From: a virus
Taxonomy: Duplodnaviria > Heunggongvirae > Uroviricota > Caudoviricetes
DNA: 7,344 nt
Virus record (IMG/VR): IMGVR_UViG_2703718843_000005
Reading direction: 5' to 3' (one strand)
The notes below the pieces were generated by a model. The model worked only from the letters and a program-made list of their open reading frames with translations. It made no database searches and was not told where the DNA came from. Numbering within the stretch: the stretch's first letter is position 1; every line of letters begins with the position of its first letter. This document shows positions 1-7,344 of this stretch, piece by piece. Made by a program: the position numbers and the translations under genes.

Positions 1-184
1 GATTCCCGGGGCGGTTCAGTTCTTTATTAGTGGAAGAATCCGGACCGTACTTCTTTATCCAGGCATAAAGGCTGTGGGTGGTGATATCGAGACGTGTTGC
101 AACGCTGGCAACAGAATAACCGCGATCAACAACCTGTTTGACTGCTTCAGTTTTAAACTCTTCGGGATAACGCTTACCGCTCAT
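1..184 (-). CDS. IS3-family transposase OrfA, N-terminal fragment (helix-turn-helix region); partial and possibly interrupted after codon 55
   Basis: Minus-strand ATG at 184-182 translates to MSGKRYPEEFKTEAVKQVVDRGYSVASVATRLDITTHSLYAWIKKYGPDSSTNKE..., which I recognise as an IS3-family OrfA N-terminus. No stop inside the window, so it is absent from the ORF track. Confidence 0.6.
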   Translation of the reverse strand, partial: MSGKRYPEEFKTEAVKQVVDRGYSVASVATRLDITTHSLYAWIKKYGPDSSTNKELNRPGN

Positions 185-247
185 GGGCACCTCTCTTTAA
201 GCCATCTTAAATGACTCTGAGGTGTCTGTTAAACCCGTGGCGATTCA
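1..247 (-). mobile_element. IS3-family insertion sequence terminal portion (partial, runs off the left edge); element end at nt 247, with a second IS3-type terminus-like sequence at nt 1-18
   Basis: Read on the - strand from 247: TGAATCGCCACGGGTTTAAC..., a TG-initiated IS3-type terminal repeat, followed 64 nt later by an orfA-like start. Reverse complement of nt 1-18 is TGAACCGCCCCGGGAATC, resembling the canonical IS3-family terminus as I recall it. Confidence 0.6.
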
Positions 248-577
248 GTTTAAATCTGCATTCAGTCTGTCATTGGTATTTGCTTTCGCCGCTACGTTGC
301 AGAAAAGCTGACTGGGGTAGATGAAGTAGCCTTTAGTTTTGATGGCATCGTCTTTAATGTCATCAGTAATTACGCTGTCATCCAGTTTCGCATAACAGAT
401 ACTGTCATCACCGGCTTCAATATAGCTGGAAAAATTTTCGCTGATAAAACGGTAGAAAAGTGCGCCCAGAACGTATTGCTTAAAATCCCATCCATCGACC
501 GAACCCCTGACATCGTTAGCAATTTGCCAGATTTGACGATGAAGCTCTGCACGTTGTTGAATACTTGTCATTTTCAT
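245..577 (-). pseudogene. hsdM: Type I restriction-modification methyltransferase HsdM (EcoR124-like, type IC), N-terminal 110 codons only, truncated by the IS insertion
   Basis: Translation MKMTSIQQRAELHRQIWQIANDVRGSVDGWDFKQYVLGALFYRFISENF... matches my recollection of the EcoR124-family HsdM N-terminus. Full HsdM is over 500 aa; here the stop (TGA, nt 247-245 on the - strand) is supplied by the first three bases of the IS terminus. The SAM-binding and catalytic motifs are absent. Confidence 0.75.
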
Positions 578-716
578 CCACTTATTTCAGGCTTATGTAA
601 TTGGATGTGATTCTACAGCAACTTGGATGCTTTAGCAGTTCGGACATTAGGCTACGAATGACCTGCCTAGAGGTTTGTTAAGCCGCAAAGTGCTGGTGCT
701 TTATGCCTGTGAAGTT

Positions 717-747
717 TATAATTGTGTACACATAACGAGTACACGAG
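717..747 (+). promoter_or_regulatory. phd-doc promoter -10 element and Phd/Doc autoregulatory operator (two palindromic sites)
   Basis: TATAAT at 717-722, immediately followed by the perfect palindrome GTGTACAC (724-731) and a second GTAC-centred imperfect palindrome CGAGTACACG (736-745), directly upstream of the phd RBS (GAGG) and ATG at 754. Two adjacent palindromes is the known architecture of the P1 phd operator. Confidence 0.6.
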
Positions 748-753
748 GTGTTT

Positions 754-975
754 ATGCAATCCATTAACTTCCGTACCGCGCGCGGCAACCTTTCTGAAGT
801 GCTCAACAATGTTGAAGCCGGGGAAGAGGTTGAAATCACCCGCAGAGGCCGTGAGCCAGCAGTAATTGTCAGCAAGGCTACTTTCGAAGCCTACAAAAAA
901 GCGGCGCTGGATGCTGAATTTGCATCCCTGTTTGACACCCTGGACTCCACCAACAAGGAACTGGTTAACCGATAA
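754..975 (+). CDS. phd: Phd antitoxin (prevent-host-death), 73 aa
   Basis: [73 protein letters not shown] matches P1 Phd as I recall it. ATG at 754 is preferred over the ORF-track GTG at 748 because GAGG sits at correct spacing. Stop overlaps the doc start (TAATG). Confidence 0.93.
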
Positions 976-1355
976 TGAGGCATATATCACCGGAAGAACT
1001 TATTGCGCTTCATGATGCGAATATAAGCCGCTACGGCGGCCTGCCGGGAATGTCAGATCCGGGCAGGGCAGAGGCCATTATCGGGAGAGTCCAGGCCAGA
1101 GTTGTGTACGAAGAGATCACCGACCTTTTCGAAGTCTCCGCCACCTACCTGGTGGCTACTGCGAGAGGGCATATATTCAATGATGCCAATAAGCGTACCG
1201 CGCTAAACAGTGCGCTGTTATTTCTACGCCGTAACGGGGTGCAGGTATTTGATTCACCTGAACTGGCAGACCTTACTGTAGGCGCTGCGACCGGAGAGAT
1301 ATCTGTATCTTCTGTCGCCGACACGTTACGTAGATTGTATGGTTCCGCGGAGTAG
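975..1355 (+). CDS. doc: Doc toxin (death-on-curing; Fic-fold kinase that phosphorylates EF-Tu), 126 aa
   Basis: 126-aa product with the Fic-type motif HIFNDANKR (encoded about nt 1170-1200), located immediately downstream of phd with a 1-nt start/stop overlap; matches P1 Doc from memory. Confidence 0.93.
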
Positions 1356-1359
1356 ATTA

Positions 1360-1539
1360 ATGGCACGTAAATACAACAAATTGTCCCGTGAAGCGTTAAA
1401 GATGCTTCTTGATGGCGTGAGTCGCCGCGAGGTAAAGCAATACCTGGTTGGTAAGCAAATTGGAGCCAGGACTGCTATTGCTGTGTTATGCCGTCAGGAA
1501 ATGGTTGTGCTTAAACAGAGAATGCCGGGCAGCAGATAA
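1360..1539 (+). CDS. pdcA: PdcA (post-doc protein A), small basic protein of unknown function, about 59 aa
   Basis: Position directly after doc as in P1. The ORF track starts at 1339, overlapping the doc 3-prime end; ATG at 1360 is preferred because GGAG at 1347-1350 gives proper RBS spacing. The start is uncertain. Confidence 0.6.
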   Translation: MARKYNKLSREALKMLLDGVSRREVKQYLVGKQIGARTAIAVLCRQEMVVLKQRMPGSR

Positions 1540-1566
1540 AGCCCAATCAGTGATGAAAGGTGTGAT

Positions 1567-2610
1567 GTGAAAGCCGTAATTACTCCCTTTGTACAAAAAG
1601 AGCTTGGCGTCGCCACATTCAAAGTGGATCAGGAAGTCAGAAAACTGGTGGAGGCTGGCCGTAAATTTATTATGGAGCCGGTGCCGCGTGAGTTAATCGA
1701 GCACATGGACGACGGCCTCGTTGTTTCCGAGCAAACTATGGCAACAAATGAGGCGTTGCAGCCGTTTTTTAACAGCGATGAACTGTTTCGCCGTATTGGT
1801 GGAATTGACGCGCTGGTGGCGTGGTTGCGCAGGAAAGAGGGGCAATGCCAGGCCGCAGATCGTAGCTGGTGTGACAACCATATTGTCCACGCAGAACGAG
1901 ACAATAGCGCGGTGTTGTTGTGCTGGCATCACGATAACCATTACCGGATGCGTGGTTTTAATGAGCTGAAAGAAACGCTGCATAATAATCGCGTTAACTG
2001 GATACTGGATGTCGCCCGTCAGGAAATGGGGCTTTCAGATGGCCATGATTTAAGTATTCAGGAACTGTGCTGGTGGGCTTTCATGCGCGACATGATGCAC
2101 CTGATGCCGGAAGAAGTCTGCCGTATATCAATAAATAAGATTAAGGCTGCAACGCAGGATAGCGGACCTATGAAAGAGGCGGATATTCGCCCGTATGACG
2201 ATCGCGCTACAGCATATGTTCAGATGATGGAAGAACGCGCCGCGCCGATGCGTGCAAAAGTATGCCCTGTGGATGTTGACTCCGACCCTGGCATGGCGCA
2301 TTTCAAAATACCAAAACTGCAATCGCTAAAATTACCCGAGTACATGGACTTTGTTGCTTCCCGTCCGTGCTGTGGATGTGGAGCTGCGGGAGCTGGCGCT
2401 CGCATTACGCCTTATATCGTTCGTCATAGTCGATTATGCGCGCATGACATTTACGCAATTCCTCTGTGCCAGTCATGCCAGCGTGATATTGAGCGTGACC
2501 GCGATAATTGGGAGAAGACGCACGGCAGGCTGGCGATGCATCAACGATTGTTCTTTGATTACGCGCTTGGAGTCGGCGTTATCACAAGTCACTCGTCGAG
2601 CGTTAGATAA
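1567..2610 (+). CDS. pdcB: PdcB (post-doc protein B), 347 aa, function unknown; contains two Cys/His-rich clusters
   Basis: GTG start at 1567 with AAAGG RBS upstream. Long uninterrupted ORF in the P1 pdcB position. Cys/His clusters are encoded at about nt 1846-1941 and 2368-2478. Confidence 0.7.
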
Positions 2611-2611
2611 A

Positions 2612-2628
2612 GTTGCTCTAATGTATTG
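2612..2628 (+). promoter_or_regulatory. C1 repressor operator-like site upstream of lpa
   Basis: GTTGCTCTAATGTATTG matches the asymmetric P1 C1 operator consensus ATTGCTCTAATAAATTT at 13 of 17 positions, with a perfect 10-bp core TTGCTCTAAT. Lpa expression is known to be C1-repressed in P1. Confidence 0.6.
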
Positions 2629-2656
2629 CTATTTCTTTAATCGATGGTATTATATT
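2627..2656 (+). promoter_or_regulatory. Candidate sigma70 promoter for lpa overlapping the C1 operator
   Basis: TTGCTA (2627-2632) and a TATTAT/TATATT-rich -10 region (2648-2656), about 45 bp upstream of the lpa start; the spacer length is approximate. Confidence 0.4.
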
Positions 2657-2698
2657 CGTCGTTGATTAGTTGACATGGGCTAATCAGTAGGTGACAGG

Positions 2699-3151
2699 AT
2701 GTTACTTAACTGGCAGGGACGCCACTTCATGGAAATAAATCACTCACGAATTACATCGTATGAGATTGCGGATTACATGATCCGCACTAAATCTCTTCTA
2801 TCAGCGAAAGAACTCGCAGCAATCCTTGAAAAGGAATACCCGCATCTGGATGTCGATAAGCGCGATGTTTATCTGCGCTTAAAGGCTATCGCTGTGTCTA
2901 AGTATTCGTCTGTTTTGATTGATGACAGTACACGCCCACGTAGATTTCAGATCCACTCTCTGAATCCTGAATTCTTTCGCCGTAGCCGCGCTCCGCGCCG
3001 GTTTGATGAAAAACTCCAGAACGAACTCTATATGACGCAGGACGAAAAGGAACGCCGGGAGCACCAGCCTTGGGTAATGGCGCGTCAACTTTTCAATAAG
3101 GTGGCCCGTCAGCACCGTCATTACGGTAATGCCACATCCGCACGTATCTGA
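2699..3151 (+). CDS. lpa: Lpa, late promoter activator (P1 gene 10 product), 150 aa
   Basis: 150-aa ORF in the canonical position between pdcB and pacA; AGGTGA RBS 7 nt upstream of ATG 2699; preceded by a C1 operator-like site. Confidence 0.85.
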   Translation: MLLNWQGRHFMEINHSRITSYEIADYMIRTKSLLSAKELAAILEKEYPHLDVDKRDVYLRLKAIAVSKYSSVLIDDSTRPRRFQIHSLNPEFFRRSRAPRRFDEKLQNELYMTQDEKERREHQPWVMARQLFNKVARQHRHYGNATSARI

Positions 3152-3161
3152 TTGATTGCTT

Positions 3162-3179
3162 GCCCGTTCCGGGCCTTTT
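3162..3179 (+). terminator. Possible weak intrinsic terminator after lpa
   Basis: GCCCG-TTC-CGGGC hairpin (5-bp GC stem, 3-nt loop) followed by CTTTT, 11 nt after the lpa stop. Confidence 0.35.
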
Positions 3180-3185
3180 GACATG

Positions 3186-3220
3186 TGACTTTCGTTACCC
3201 TCGCGTCAAAAAGAGTTTTT
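3186..3220 (+). promoter_or_regulatory. Candidate Lpa-dependent late promoter for pacA-pacB
   Basis: TTGACATGTGAC (contains the palindrome ACATGT) followed by a TANNNT-type element TACCCT (3205-3210) and the inverted pair TTTTGAC...GTCAAAA (3187-3193 / 3214-3220), 17-50 bp upstream of the pacA start. P1 late promoters are known to pair a -10 element with an upstream inverted repeat in place of a -35; I cannot recall the exact consensus. Confidence 0.35.
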
Positions 3221-3236
3221 ACGAAAGGAAGCATAA

Positions 3237-4430
3237 GTGACCTGGGACGATCACAAGAAGAATTTTGCTCGCCTGGCGCGAGATGGTGGTTACACCATCG
3301 CACAGTATGCCGCCGAGTTTAATCTTAACCCTAATACCGCACGTCGTTATCTCCGTGCCTTCAAAGAAGACACCAGGACAGCGGACAGCCGCAAGCCAAA
3401 TAAGCCTGTCAGGAAACCACTAAAAAGCATGATCATTGATCACGCTAATGATCAACGTGCAGGTGATCACATTGCGGCTGAAATAGCGGAAAAACAAAGA
3501 GTTAATGCCGTTGTCAGTGCCGCAGTCGAGAATGCGAAGCGCCAAAATAAGCGCATAAATGATCGTTCAGATGATCATGACGTGATCACCCGCGCCCACC
3601 TGACCTTACGTGATCGCCTGGAACGCGACACCCTGGATGATGATGGTGAACGCTTTGAATTCGAAGCTGGCGATTACCTGATAGATAACGTTGAAGCGCG
3701 GAAGGCCGCGCGCGCTATGTTGCGTCGGTCCGGGGCCGATGTTCTGGAAACCACTCTTCTGGAAAAGTCTCTTTCTCATCTCCTTATGCTGGAGAACGCC
3801 AGGGATACGTGTATTCGCTTGGTGCAGGAAATGCGCGATCAGCAAAAAGACGATGATGAAGGTACTCCGCCTGAATACCGTATCGCGAGCATGCTAAACA
3901 GCTGTTCCGCGCAGATAAGCAGCCTGATCAACACCATTTACAGCATCCGGAATAACTATCGAAAAGAAAGCCGGGAGGCGGAAAAGCACGCTTTATCTAT
4001 GGGGCAAGCTGGCATTGTTAAGCTGGCATACGAACGAAAGCGTGAAAATAACTGGTCAGTGCTGGAAGCGGCTGAATTCATCGAGGCGCATGGAGGAAAA
4101 GTGCCGCCCCTGATGCTGGAGCAAATCAAAGCCGATCTGCGTGCTCCTAAGACCAATACCGATGATGAGGAAAACCAAACAGCATCTGGCGCTCCATCAC
4201 TTGAAGATCTGGATAAAATCGCGCGAGAACGGGCCGCCAGCCGCCGCGCTGATGCGGCATTGTGGATTGAGCATCGTAGAGAAGAAATTGCCGATATCGT
4301 CGATACAGGTGGTTATGGTGATGTCGATGCGGAAGGCATATCAAACGAAGCATGGCTTGAACAGGATCTGGACGAAGACGAGGAGGAAGACGAAGAAGTT
4401 ACCCGCAAACTGTACGGGGATGATGATTAA
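3237..4430 (+). CDS. pacA: PacA, terminase small (pac-recognition) subunit, 397 aa
   Basis: GTG start with AAAGGA RBS; 397 aa; contains the hexamer-repeat pac site internally; strongly acidic C-terminal tail ([11 protein letters not shown]); stop overlaps the pacB start (TAATG). Confidence 0.9.
3430..3588 (+). other. pac site: phage P1-type packaging cleavage site with Dam-methylatable hexamer repeats
   Basis: Four TGATCA hexamers at 3430-3435, 3437-3442, 3449-3454 and 3464-3469, then three TGATC(G/A) hexamers at 3560-3565, 3572-3577 and 3583-3588 (a further TGATCG at 3611-3616). Each contains GATC. This is the known 4 + 3 arrangement of P1 pac inside pacA. Confidence 0.85.
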
Positions 4431-5914
4431 TGGCCAGAAGTTGCGTAACGGACCCACGTTGGCGCGAGCTGGTGGCGCTATATCGTTATGACTGGATTGC
4501 GGCCGCTGATGTGTTGTTTGGGAAGACACCAACCTGGCAGCAGGATGAGATCATTGAGTCCACGCAGCAGGACGGCAGTTGGACAAGTGTGACCTCCGGC
4601 CATGGTACTGGTAAATCGGATATGACGAGTATCATTGCAATACTCTTCATCATGTTTTTCCCCGGCGCTCGCGTCATTCTGGTCGCTAACAAAAGACAGC
4701 AAGTCCTTGATGGTATTTTCAAATACATAAAGAGCAATTGGGCTACTGCTGTTAGCAGATTCCCGTGGTTGTCGAAGTATTTCATTCTTACAGAAACGTC
4801 TTTTTTTGAGGTGACTGGCAAGGGTGTTTGGACAATATTGATAAAGTCCTGTCGCCCCGGAAATGAGGAGGCGTTGGCTGGTGAACACGCCGATCATCTC
4901 TTGTATATCATCGACGAAGCGTCGGGTGTGAGTGATAAAGCATTCAGTGTGATAACAGGTGCGCTGACCGGTAAGGATAACCGTATTCTGCTTCTTTCCC
5001 AGCCTACGCGACCTTCAGGCTATTTCTACGATTCACACCACAGACTAGCTATTCGCCCGGGAAATCCTGATGGATTGTTTACTGCGATAATACTGAATAG
5101 TGAAGAATCTCCGCTTGTAGATGCAAAATTTATACGAGCAAAACTTGCGGAGTATGGCGGTCGTGATAACCCCATGTACATGATCAAAGTACGTGGTGAA
5201 TTTCCCAAATCTCAAGATGGCTTTCTTCTTGGTCGTGATGAGGTTGAGCGGGCGACGCGGCGAAAGGTCAAGATTGCCAAAGGATGGGGCTGGGTTGCAT
5301 GTGTTGACGTTGCTGGTGGCACAGGACGAGATAAGTCCGTTATTAATATCATGATGGTGTCCGGCCAGCGAAATAAACGCCGTGTAATCAACTATCGTAT
5401 GCTGGAATACACAGACGTTACAGAAACGCAGTTAGCCGCCAAGATTTTCGCAGAATGTAACCCAGAACGGTTCCCGAACATAACCATAGCTATTGATGGC
5501 GATGGCTTGGGGAAATCGACGGCTGATCTAATGTACGAACGCTATGGCATTACCGTCCAGCGTATCCGCTGGGGTAAAAAGATGCACAGCCGTGAAGATA
5601 AAAGCCTTTATTTCGATATGCGCGCTTTCGCGAATATTCAGGCGGCAGAAGCTGTAAAATCAGGGCGTATGAGGCTTGATAAGGGGGCTGCGACTATAGA
5701 GGAAGCATCAAAGATACCGGTAGGGATAAATTCCGCAGGTCAATGGAAGGTGATGTCAAAGGAAGATATGAAGAAAAAACTCAACCTGCACTCACCGGAC
5801 CATTGGGATACATATTGTTTCGCTATGTTGGCGAACTATGTTCCCCAAGATGAAGTGCTTAGCGTCGAAGACGAAGCGCAGGTTGATGAAGCTCTGGCAT
5901 GGCTTAATGAATAA
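4430..5914 (+). CDS. pacB: PacB, terminase large subunit (ATPase/nuclease), 494 aa
   Basis: 494-aa ORF with Walker A-like SGHGTGKS (about nt 4592-4615) and Walker B-like [10 protein letters not shown]; translationally coupled to pacA. Confidence 0.9.
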
Positions 5915-7229: not shown

Positions 7230-7344
7230 GGAAGGTGCGAATAAGTTCCTGATATGAGATCATCATATTCATCCGGAGCGCATCCCAGAGGGACATCATG
7301 AGCCATCAACTCACCTTCGCCGATATAGTGAATTCAGCACTAAG
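7230..7344 (+). mobile_element. IS5-family insertion sequence, left end (partial, runs off the right edge)
   Basis: GGAAGGTGCGAATAAG at 7230-7245 matches the 16-bp IS5 terminal inverted repeat as I recall it; an InsH-like transposase start follows 68 nt later. Confidence 0.75.
7298..7344 (+). CDS. IS5-family transposase (InsH-like), N-terminal 15 codons, partial
   Basis: ATG at 7298 translates to MSHQLTFAD..., matching the IS5 InsH N-terminus (MSHQLTFADSEF...) for the first nine residues before diverging. Confidence 0.65.
   Translation, partial: MSHQLTFADIVNSAL

Follow-up and report, generated by a model that had tools for sequence, protein, structure and literature searches.

The first 247 nt of the window (the entire 7344-bp stretch of DNA that was analysed) very probably are the right-hand portion of two IS3-family (IS51-group) insertion sequences, one nested in the other; the nest sits on a seam between IncFIB and P1-like DNA and was rearranged after the insertions had taken place. 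The window is 100% identical to positions 34739-42082 of NZ_CP081712.1, a 74.8 kb IncFIB plasmid of E. coli AH21 from Canada. Its first 700 nt are also identical in four UK cattle-farm plasmids with the same nest, CP099133, CP057248, CP057263 and CP057260. Read along the minus strand, the order is a truncated hsdM (hsdM'), nt 1-229 of an ISEhe3-like element, IS629, nt 960-1229 of the ISEhe3-like element and a truncated zinc-finger gene; 730 bp of the ISEhe3-like element have been lost. Both insertion sequences are known members of the IS3 family, and the structure is already contained in the public annotation, where RefSeq records two partial transposase genes, an intact one between them and an hsdM pseudogene. 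What lies at the left edge of the window is the usual debris of mobile elements where a plasmid mosaic is joined: nesting of one IS in another, deletions next to an IS and plasmid mosaics bounded by IS elements are all textbook phenomena and imply no new element or mechanism. The coordinates of all features are collected in Table 1.

Table 1. Features of the nested elements, their surroundings and related junctions (positions refer to the window unless stated otherwise; L001 is NZ_CP081712.1 26739-43438, so that window nt x is L001 x+8000 and the window is L001 8001-15344)
Feature	Position	Strand	Remarks
IS629 left inverted repeat (IRL), first 18 nt	1..18	-	element runs past the left window edge (NZ_CP081712.1 34756->33447)
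Truncated orfA' (HTH_Tnp_1), fused out of context to IS629 IRL	2..184	-	ORF translation, Pfam
ISEhe3-like nt 1-229: IRL, leader, orfA codons 1-55	19..247	-	226/229 identical to L005:301-1529
Sigma-70-like hexamers TTAACA-17-TAAGAT in ISEhe3-like left end, 5' of orfA	204..232	-	consensus scan only
ISEhe3-like IRL tip, TGAATCGCCACGGGTTTA	230..247	-	shares 13 identical nt with the element's right-end tip
hsdM', N-terminal 110 codons of type I R-M M subunit	245..577	-	ORF list, Pfam HsdM_N
pacB point joined to IS629 IRL tip in CP057278.1	4785		sibling without window 1-4784
IS5-family (ISKpn26-type) left end, GGAAGGTGCGAATAAG...	7231..7344	+	closes P1-like block on the right
hsdM'	L001 up to 8247/8248 junction (window 247/248)	-	N-terminal part of hsdM
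ISEhe3-like left part	L001 8247->8019 (window 247->19)	-	element nt 1-229
IS629	L001 8018->6709 (window 18->1 is its start)	-	complete, 1310 bp
ISEhe3-like right part	L001 6708->6439	-	nt 960-1229, including right inverted repeat
Truncated C2H2 zinc-finger gene	L001 from 6438 down	-	FIB backbone side
IS629/IS1203-type end in ISEhe3-like element	element nt 216, L006 (2566/2567)
IS629/IS1203-type end in ISEhe3-like element	element nt 416, L015 (3082/3083)
IS629/IS1203-type nest in ISEhe3-like element	element nt 441, L011		complete, clean AGC duplication
IS629/IS1203-type end in ISEhe3-like element	element nt 870, L014 (3082/3083)

Two termini and an interrupted orfA frame

On the minus strand, nt 18 to 1 read TGAACCGCCCCGGGAATC and nt 247 to 230 carry the second tip; the two lie 229 bp apart and are identical at 13 of 18 positions. 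Searching the 7344-bp window for the core TGAAYCGCCMCGGG with at most one mismatch gave only two matches, 18 to 5 and 247 to 234, both on the minus strand (0.01 matches expected from the shuffled controls; two matches in 0 of 200 shuffles). The orfA' frame that begins with the ATG at 184 encodes MSGKRYPEEFK...GPDSSTNKE, including an HTH domain (Pfam PF01527, E = 2.6e-15), and then continues as LNRPGN, whereas the intact copy of the element reads ...SSANKEQSDAQAE (NKEQSDAQ) at the same point. The break falls precisely at 18/19, one base into codon 56, and the frame ends at a TAA three codons past the window edge, as read from the source sequence; RefSeq labels it 'IS3 family transposase, incomplete, missing C-terminus'.

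An earlier note on this DNA had read both 18-mers as IS3-type termini and had regarded the departure of the frame at 18/19 as consistent with the insertion of one IS3-family element into the orfA of another. The two 18-mers do read as quoted there and are the tips of real elements, and IS629 does break the orfA of the ISEhe3-like element at this position. The leftward extension proposed there, carried out in NZ_CP081712.1, leads into a complete IS629 with its own orfA and orfB. The roles given to the two elements have to be exchanged: the 229-bp piece, regarded as the inner element, is the outer recipient, and IS629 is the insert. Nor is this piece all that is left of its element, since a further 270 bp follow beyond IS629, namely nt 960-1229, which include the right inverted repeat. 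The target-site duplications that the note suggested looking for are present at neither IS (flanks AAC/TCA and AAC/TCG).

The alternative in which nt 1-18 simply belong to the coding region of a single intact IS, with a coincidental likeness to an inverted repeat, is excluded: the leftward sequence proves to be a full 1310-bp IS629 complete with termini and genes, and where the interrupted element is intact it reads ...NKEQSDAQ at this point. IS elements are a common cause of mis-assembly, and the nest might accordingly be thought to stem from collapsed or mis-joined IS repeats; however, five complete plasmid assemblies, from Canada and the UK, have the same junctions, a sixth has the right one, and each nest junction is unique within its record, which leaves an assembly artefact with next to no probability.

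The nested elements and the plasmid seam

The outer element can be described from an intact copy (L005:301-1529), which is 1229 bp long, matches at 29 of 40 terminal positions, encodes an OrfA of 92 aa and an OrfB containing rve, and has an A7G slippery run (AAAAAAAG) at nt 303. The target is duplicated as GGT (3 bp) at this copy and as GTTT at another (L016). The intact copy thus has the characters of an IS3-family element, of which the window fragment itself contains only the IRL and 55 orfA codons. Under ISfinder practice, the same name is given to elements with at least ~95% nucleotide identity to the reference. With the element annotated as ISEhe3 orfA/orfB in Shigella phage SfIV, the intact copy shares 89.5% identity; our label 'ISEhe3-like' is taken from this ~90% identical phage copy, and the element may carry an ISfinder name of its own. 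RefSeq names the outer element only 'IS3 family transposase', and the SfIV element was called ISEhe3 by its authors (PMC3851460). The missing nt 230-959 (730 bp) include the frameshift site as well as the greater part of orfB, the DDE transposase gene; with their loss the element is dead. The remnant has no target-site duplication, with AAC on the hsdM side and TCG on the zinc-finger side.

Fragments of the same 5' part are widespread: more than 1,400 complete E. coli genomes contain one that covers at least 80% of window 247 to 19, and 621 of these records match with at least 99% identity (the top hits among those listed with 100%). The copy that we inspected, near cobU in the chromosome of E. 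coli M217 (L003 2501-2812), is a 5' ISEhe3-like fragment cut by IS30, which suggests that the fragment near the cob genes is an old, widely inherited remnant.

The inner element has TG...CA ends with TGAACCGCCCCGGG at both (30 of 40 terminal positions complementary), a length within the 1.2-1.55 kb of the IS3 family, and orfA and orfB in the 0 and -1 frames: orfA is open (108 aa, HTH_Tnp_1), and orfB, in the -1 frame, contains HTH_21 and rve. Over its nt 1-1310 it is 99.1% identical to copies in Stx phages annotated as 'insertion sequence:IS3 family IS629'. In RefSeq it is an intact transposase with a CDS joined by 'programmed frameshift' and a pseudoknot feature. Judged by its sequence, IS629 is full-length, appears intact and has the same orientation as its ISEhe3-like host element. 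The names 'IS629' and 'ISEhe3-like' are based on depositors' annotations and percent identity. IS629 belongs to the IS51 group, like ISEhe3, and the likeness of the two tips would follow from this shared group; it is close to IS1203 and IS3411 and known from E. coli O157 and Shigella. The flanks of the present copy, AAC and TCA, form no target-site duplication. Other copies of IS629 do have one (AGC in L011, TTC in L012), and its absence here thus reflects later rearrangement rather than non-membership in the IS3 family.

Since hsdM', orfA' and IS629 all point in the same direction, read-through into IS629 would be possible. The hexamers found 5' of orfA might be a native IS promoter aimed into IS629, although the number of sites in the promoter consensus scan was not above that in the shuffles and nothing beyond chance was seen.

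The ISEhe3-like element cut a P1-type hsdM after codon 110. The gene is interrupted at 247/248 and receives its stop TGA from the IS tip; aligned with an intact hsdM, that of a P1-like IncY plasmid, the sequence agrees completely from nt 248 on but shows no relationship before that point. An apparent 6-bp continuation of the hsdM match into the IS tip (window 242-247) was discarded as a BLAST extension through mismatches, the true junction being 247/248. RefSeq treats hsdM' as a pseudogene. The junction with the zinc-finger gene is common to Klebsiella FIB-type plasmids, whose match runs as far as the IS tip. As the hsdM side is P1-like and the zinc-finger side belongs to the FIB backbone, the nest sits exactly on the seam between the two backbones. 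The P1-like block comprises ~7 kb (hsdM'-phd-doc-pdcA-pdcB-lpa-pacA-pacB-c1-coi); in the IS5-family end that follows it, a CDS annotated as 'IS5-like element ISKpn26 family' transposase starts at window 7298. An intact phd-doc, the P1 addiction module, is kept on the IncFIB plasmid at window 748-1355, adjoining the truncated hsdM.

The type I restriction-modification system was thus inactivated, the truncated hsdM explaining its absence, and the P1 phd-doc/pac/c1 fragment was left as IS-bounded cargo. The junctions 18/19 and 247/248 can serve as specific markers for tracking the plasmid lineage. Beyond this, the structure documents a P1-like phage-plasmid fragment that became fixed in an IncFIB plasmid of cattle-associated E. 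coli, which is of limited importance.

Origin of the nest and later rearrangements

As neither element is flanked by a target-site duplication, the nest is not a simple insertion, and at least one deletion or recombination must have followed. Indeed, it departs from a simple IS-in-IS insertion in two respects: the recipient is short by 730 bp and has no duplicated target. We prefer a pathway with an adjacent deletion on the left side of IS629. According to this pathway, IS629 would have entered the ISEhe3-like element at about nt 960-962 by copy-out/paste-in, and a transposase-associated adjacent deletion, starting exactly at the left tip of IS629, would then have taken ~730 bp. In a sibling plasmid, CP057278.1, another such deletion, later and larger, would have extended from the same tip into pacB. 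Separately, the ISEhe3-like element would have become a hybrid that joins hsdM to the C2H2 zinc-finger gene, either by recombination between two copies or by deletion. Deletions next to IS629 have been described that range from a few nt to >40 kb (PMC9943667), and adjacent deletions that depend on the IS3 transposase sometimes preserve the IS (PMC8860574).

The sibling CP057278.1 retains IS629 and the right ISEhe3-like part, and the left tip of IS629 lies directly on pacB (L009 4540-4545), with 4 bp (TGAA) common to IS tip and target. Of the plasmids with the full nest, AH21 and three of the four from the UK show only a single IS629 copy, the junction queries matching one place; searches with the nest sequence over these plasmids showed no second ISEhe3-like end. 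The pacB deletion, taken together with the single IS629 copy, indicates that the left end of IS629 makes adjacent deletions without a resident second copy. Junction 18/19 has no microhomology, whereas the pacB junction shares 4 bp (TGAA), so the two events need not share a mechanism.

Searches for an ancestor were negative. No plasmid with a simple IS629 insertion and a duplication at nt 229 or nt 960 was found, and when 5,426 complete E. coli genomes and PLSDB were queried with the junctions, exact matches came from AH21 and the RHB31 farm plasmids only. Insertion at nt 960 with a left deletion corresponds to the ancestral junction ...CCTGAAATCA/TGAACCGCCCC, insertion at nt 229 with a right deletion to ...GGGGCGGTTCA/AACAGTCAGATG; exact scans of metagenome and genome contigs for the predicted ancestral junctions TTCCTGAAATCA/TGAACCGCCCC and GGGGCGGTTCA/AACAGTCAGATG gave no match. 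As no ancestor was found, the order of events, like the type of the rearrangements, is one that we infer. BLAST matches running 10-22 bp past the IS629 tip at first seemed to indicate a shared target; they are the best picks among up to 40 IS629 copies per genome, and the flanks concerned (L007, L008) are unrelated and loosely similar, so they were rejected.

Two other histories were weighed against the left-side deletion. IS629 could itself be a hybrid, formed when separate insertions into two ISEhe3-like copies, one in the P1-like hsdM (at nt 229/230) and one in the FIB zinc-finger gene (at nt 959/960), were followed by recombination between the IS629 copies that fused the replicons or deleted the stretch between them. 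This would lose both sets of duplications in one step, in line with two elements without duplications and with a nest whose sides belong to different backbones; two such hits are also not far-fetched, as IS629-type elements occur in ISEhe3-like copies at several other positions. It requires, however, two independent insertions in the same orientation into copies of one small element, neither a parental junction nor the reciprocal product was found in the complete genomes, PLSDB or the contigs, and the pacB deletion arose in a plasmid family in which a single IS629 copy is seen. We consider this history possible, though not likely. A simple insertion at nt 229/230 with the duplication AAC, followed by a deletion of ISEhe3-like nt 227/230-959 from the right end, would account for the clean junction at 18/19 and for the AAC right before the IS629 tip, where the left copy of the duplication is expected, and adjacent deletions have been reported from either end of IS3-family elements (PMC8860574). 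But the only later rearrangement directly observed in the plasmid family starts at the left end, and an ancestor with the right-hand junction GGTTCA/AACAGTCAG was not found in the contig scans, which makes this order of events unlikely. The left-side adjacent deletion remains our preferred pathway.

In CP057248.1, a group II intron (5' GTGTG..., ltrA) has divided IS629 at nt 786/787. The two halves of IS629 (L017 852-1375 and L018 about 3375-4169) are inverted and lie ~13 kb apart across the record origin; each adjoins an intron copy, and the two intron copies are inverted as well, which implies an inversion between them. Homing of intron E.c.I4 into IS629 transposase genes has been reported (PMC3522654), and the intron of CP057248.1 fits this. 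With the pacB deletion in one sibling and the intron and inversion in another, IS629 at the seam is still reshaping the plasmid family.

Clustering of insertions and comparison with known systems

The earlier note had further suggested that the P1-like block has an insertion hotspot or an IS graveyard at its edge. The graveyard is borne out, with the nest on the left and the ISKpn26-type IS5 end at 7231 on the right; for a hotspot the support is only suggestive. IS629/IS1203-type ends were found at four more positions of ISEhe3-like elements (Table 1). These positions are scattered rather than confined to one site and lie in unrelated chromosomes and plasmids. The nest at nt 441 (L011), with its duplication AGC, is a true simple one. 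A second recurrence concerns hsdM: in the STEC309 chromosome, an hsdM that is 97.6% identical over the matched stretch contains an intact ISEhe3-like copy (L016 1783-3011) at exactly the base of window 247/248, oppositely oriented and with a GTTT duplication. This is an independent hit on the same hsdM site.

Two-piece matches such as that in L012 initially looked like further IS629-in-ISEhe3-like nests and were not counted, since IS629 sits in an IS30 remnant there. The locus (L012 2354-4966, p13C1065T-3) is a three-level nest in which an ISEhe3-like element contains an IS30 remnant that in turn contains IS629 with a TTC duplication.

Taken together, IS629-type junctions occur at ISEhe3-like nt 216, 229, 416, 441, 870 and 960 on unrelated replicons. 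It seems doubtful, and on the whole improbable, that this clustering reflects a real target preference (of IS629-type elements for an IS51-group relative, and of the ISEhe3-like element for one site in hsdM) and that the nest is a unit mobilisable in trans. The truncated ISEhe3-like element with its IS629 measures 1809 bp and has kept both ISEhe3-like ends, so an intact copy could mobilise this unit in trans; if so, it would be a non-autonomous element carrying an active IS629.

Compared with known systems, the IS629 copy agrees with IS629 of E. coli O157 and Shigella in its 1310 bp, its TGAACCGCCCCGGG tips, its orfA + orfB frameshift and the 99.1% identity. It differs from the copies in EHEC chromosomes and prophages in that it lies inside another IS, on an IncFIB plasmid, and lacks a 3-bp duplication. 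ISEhe3, the closest named counterpart of the outer element, is assigned to the IS3 family and IS51 group with 3-4 bp direct repeats (reference accession AF327445), and its type copy in Pantoea agglomerans pPATH is split by the IS3-family element ISEhe4 (PMC10425158). The outer element resembles it in family, group, 3-4 bp direct repeats and interruption by an IS, and differs in its ~90% identity (measured to the SfIV copy) and in that only nt 1-229 and 960-1229 survive here. As in other mosaics of P1-like phage-plasmids and F-type plasmids, the P1 segment ends in an IS on both sides; in the intact IncY P1-like relative hsdRSM lies next to phd, whereas here only ~7 kb of P1 has been kept.
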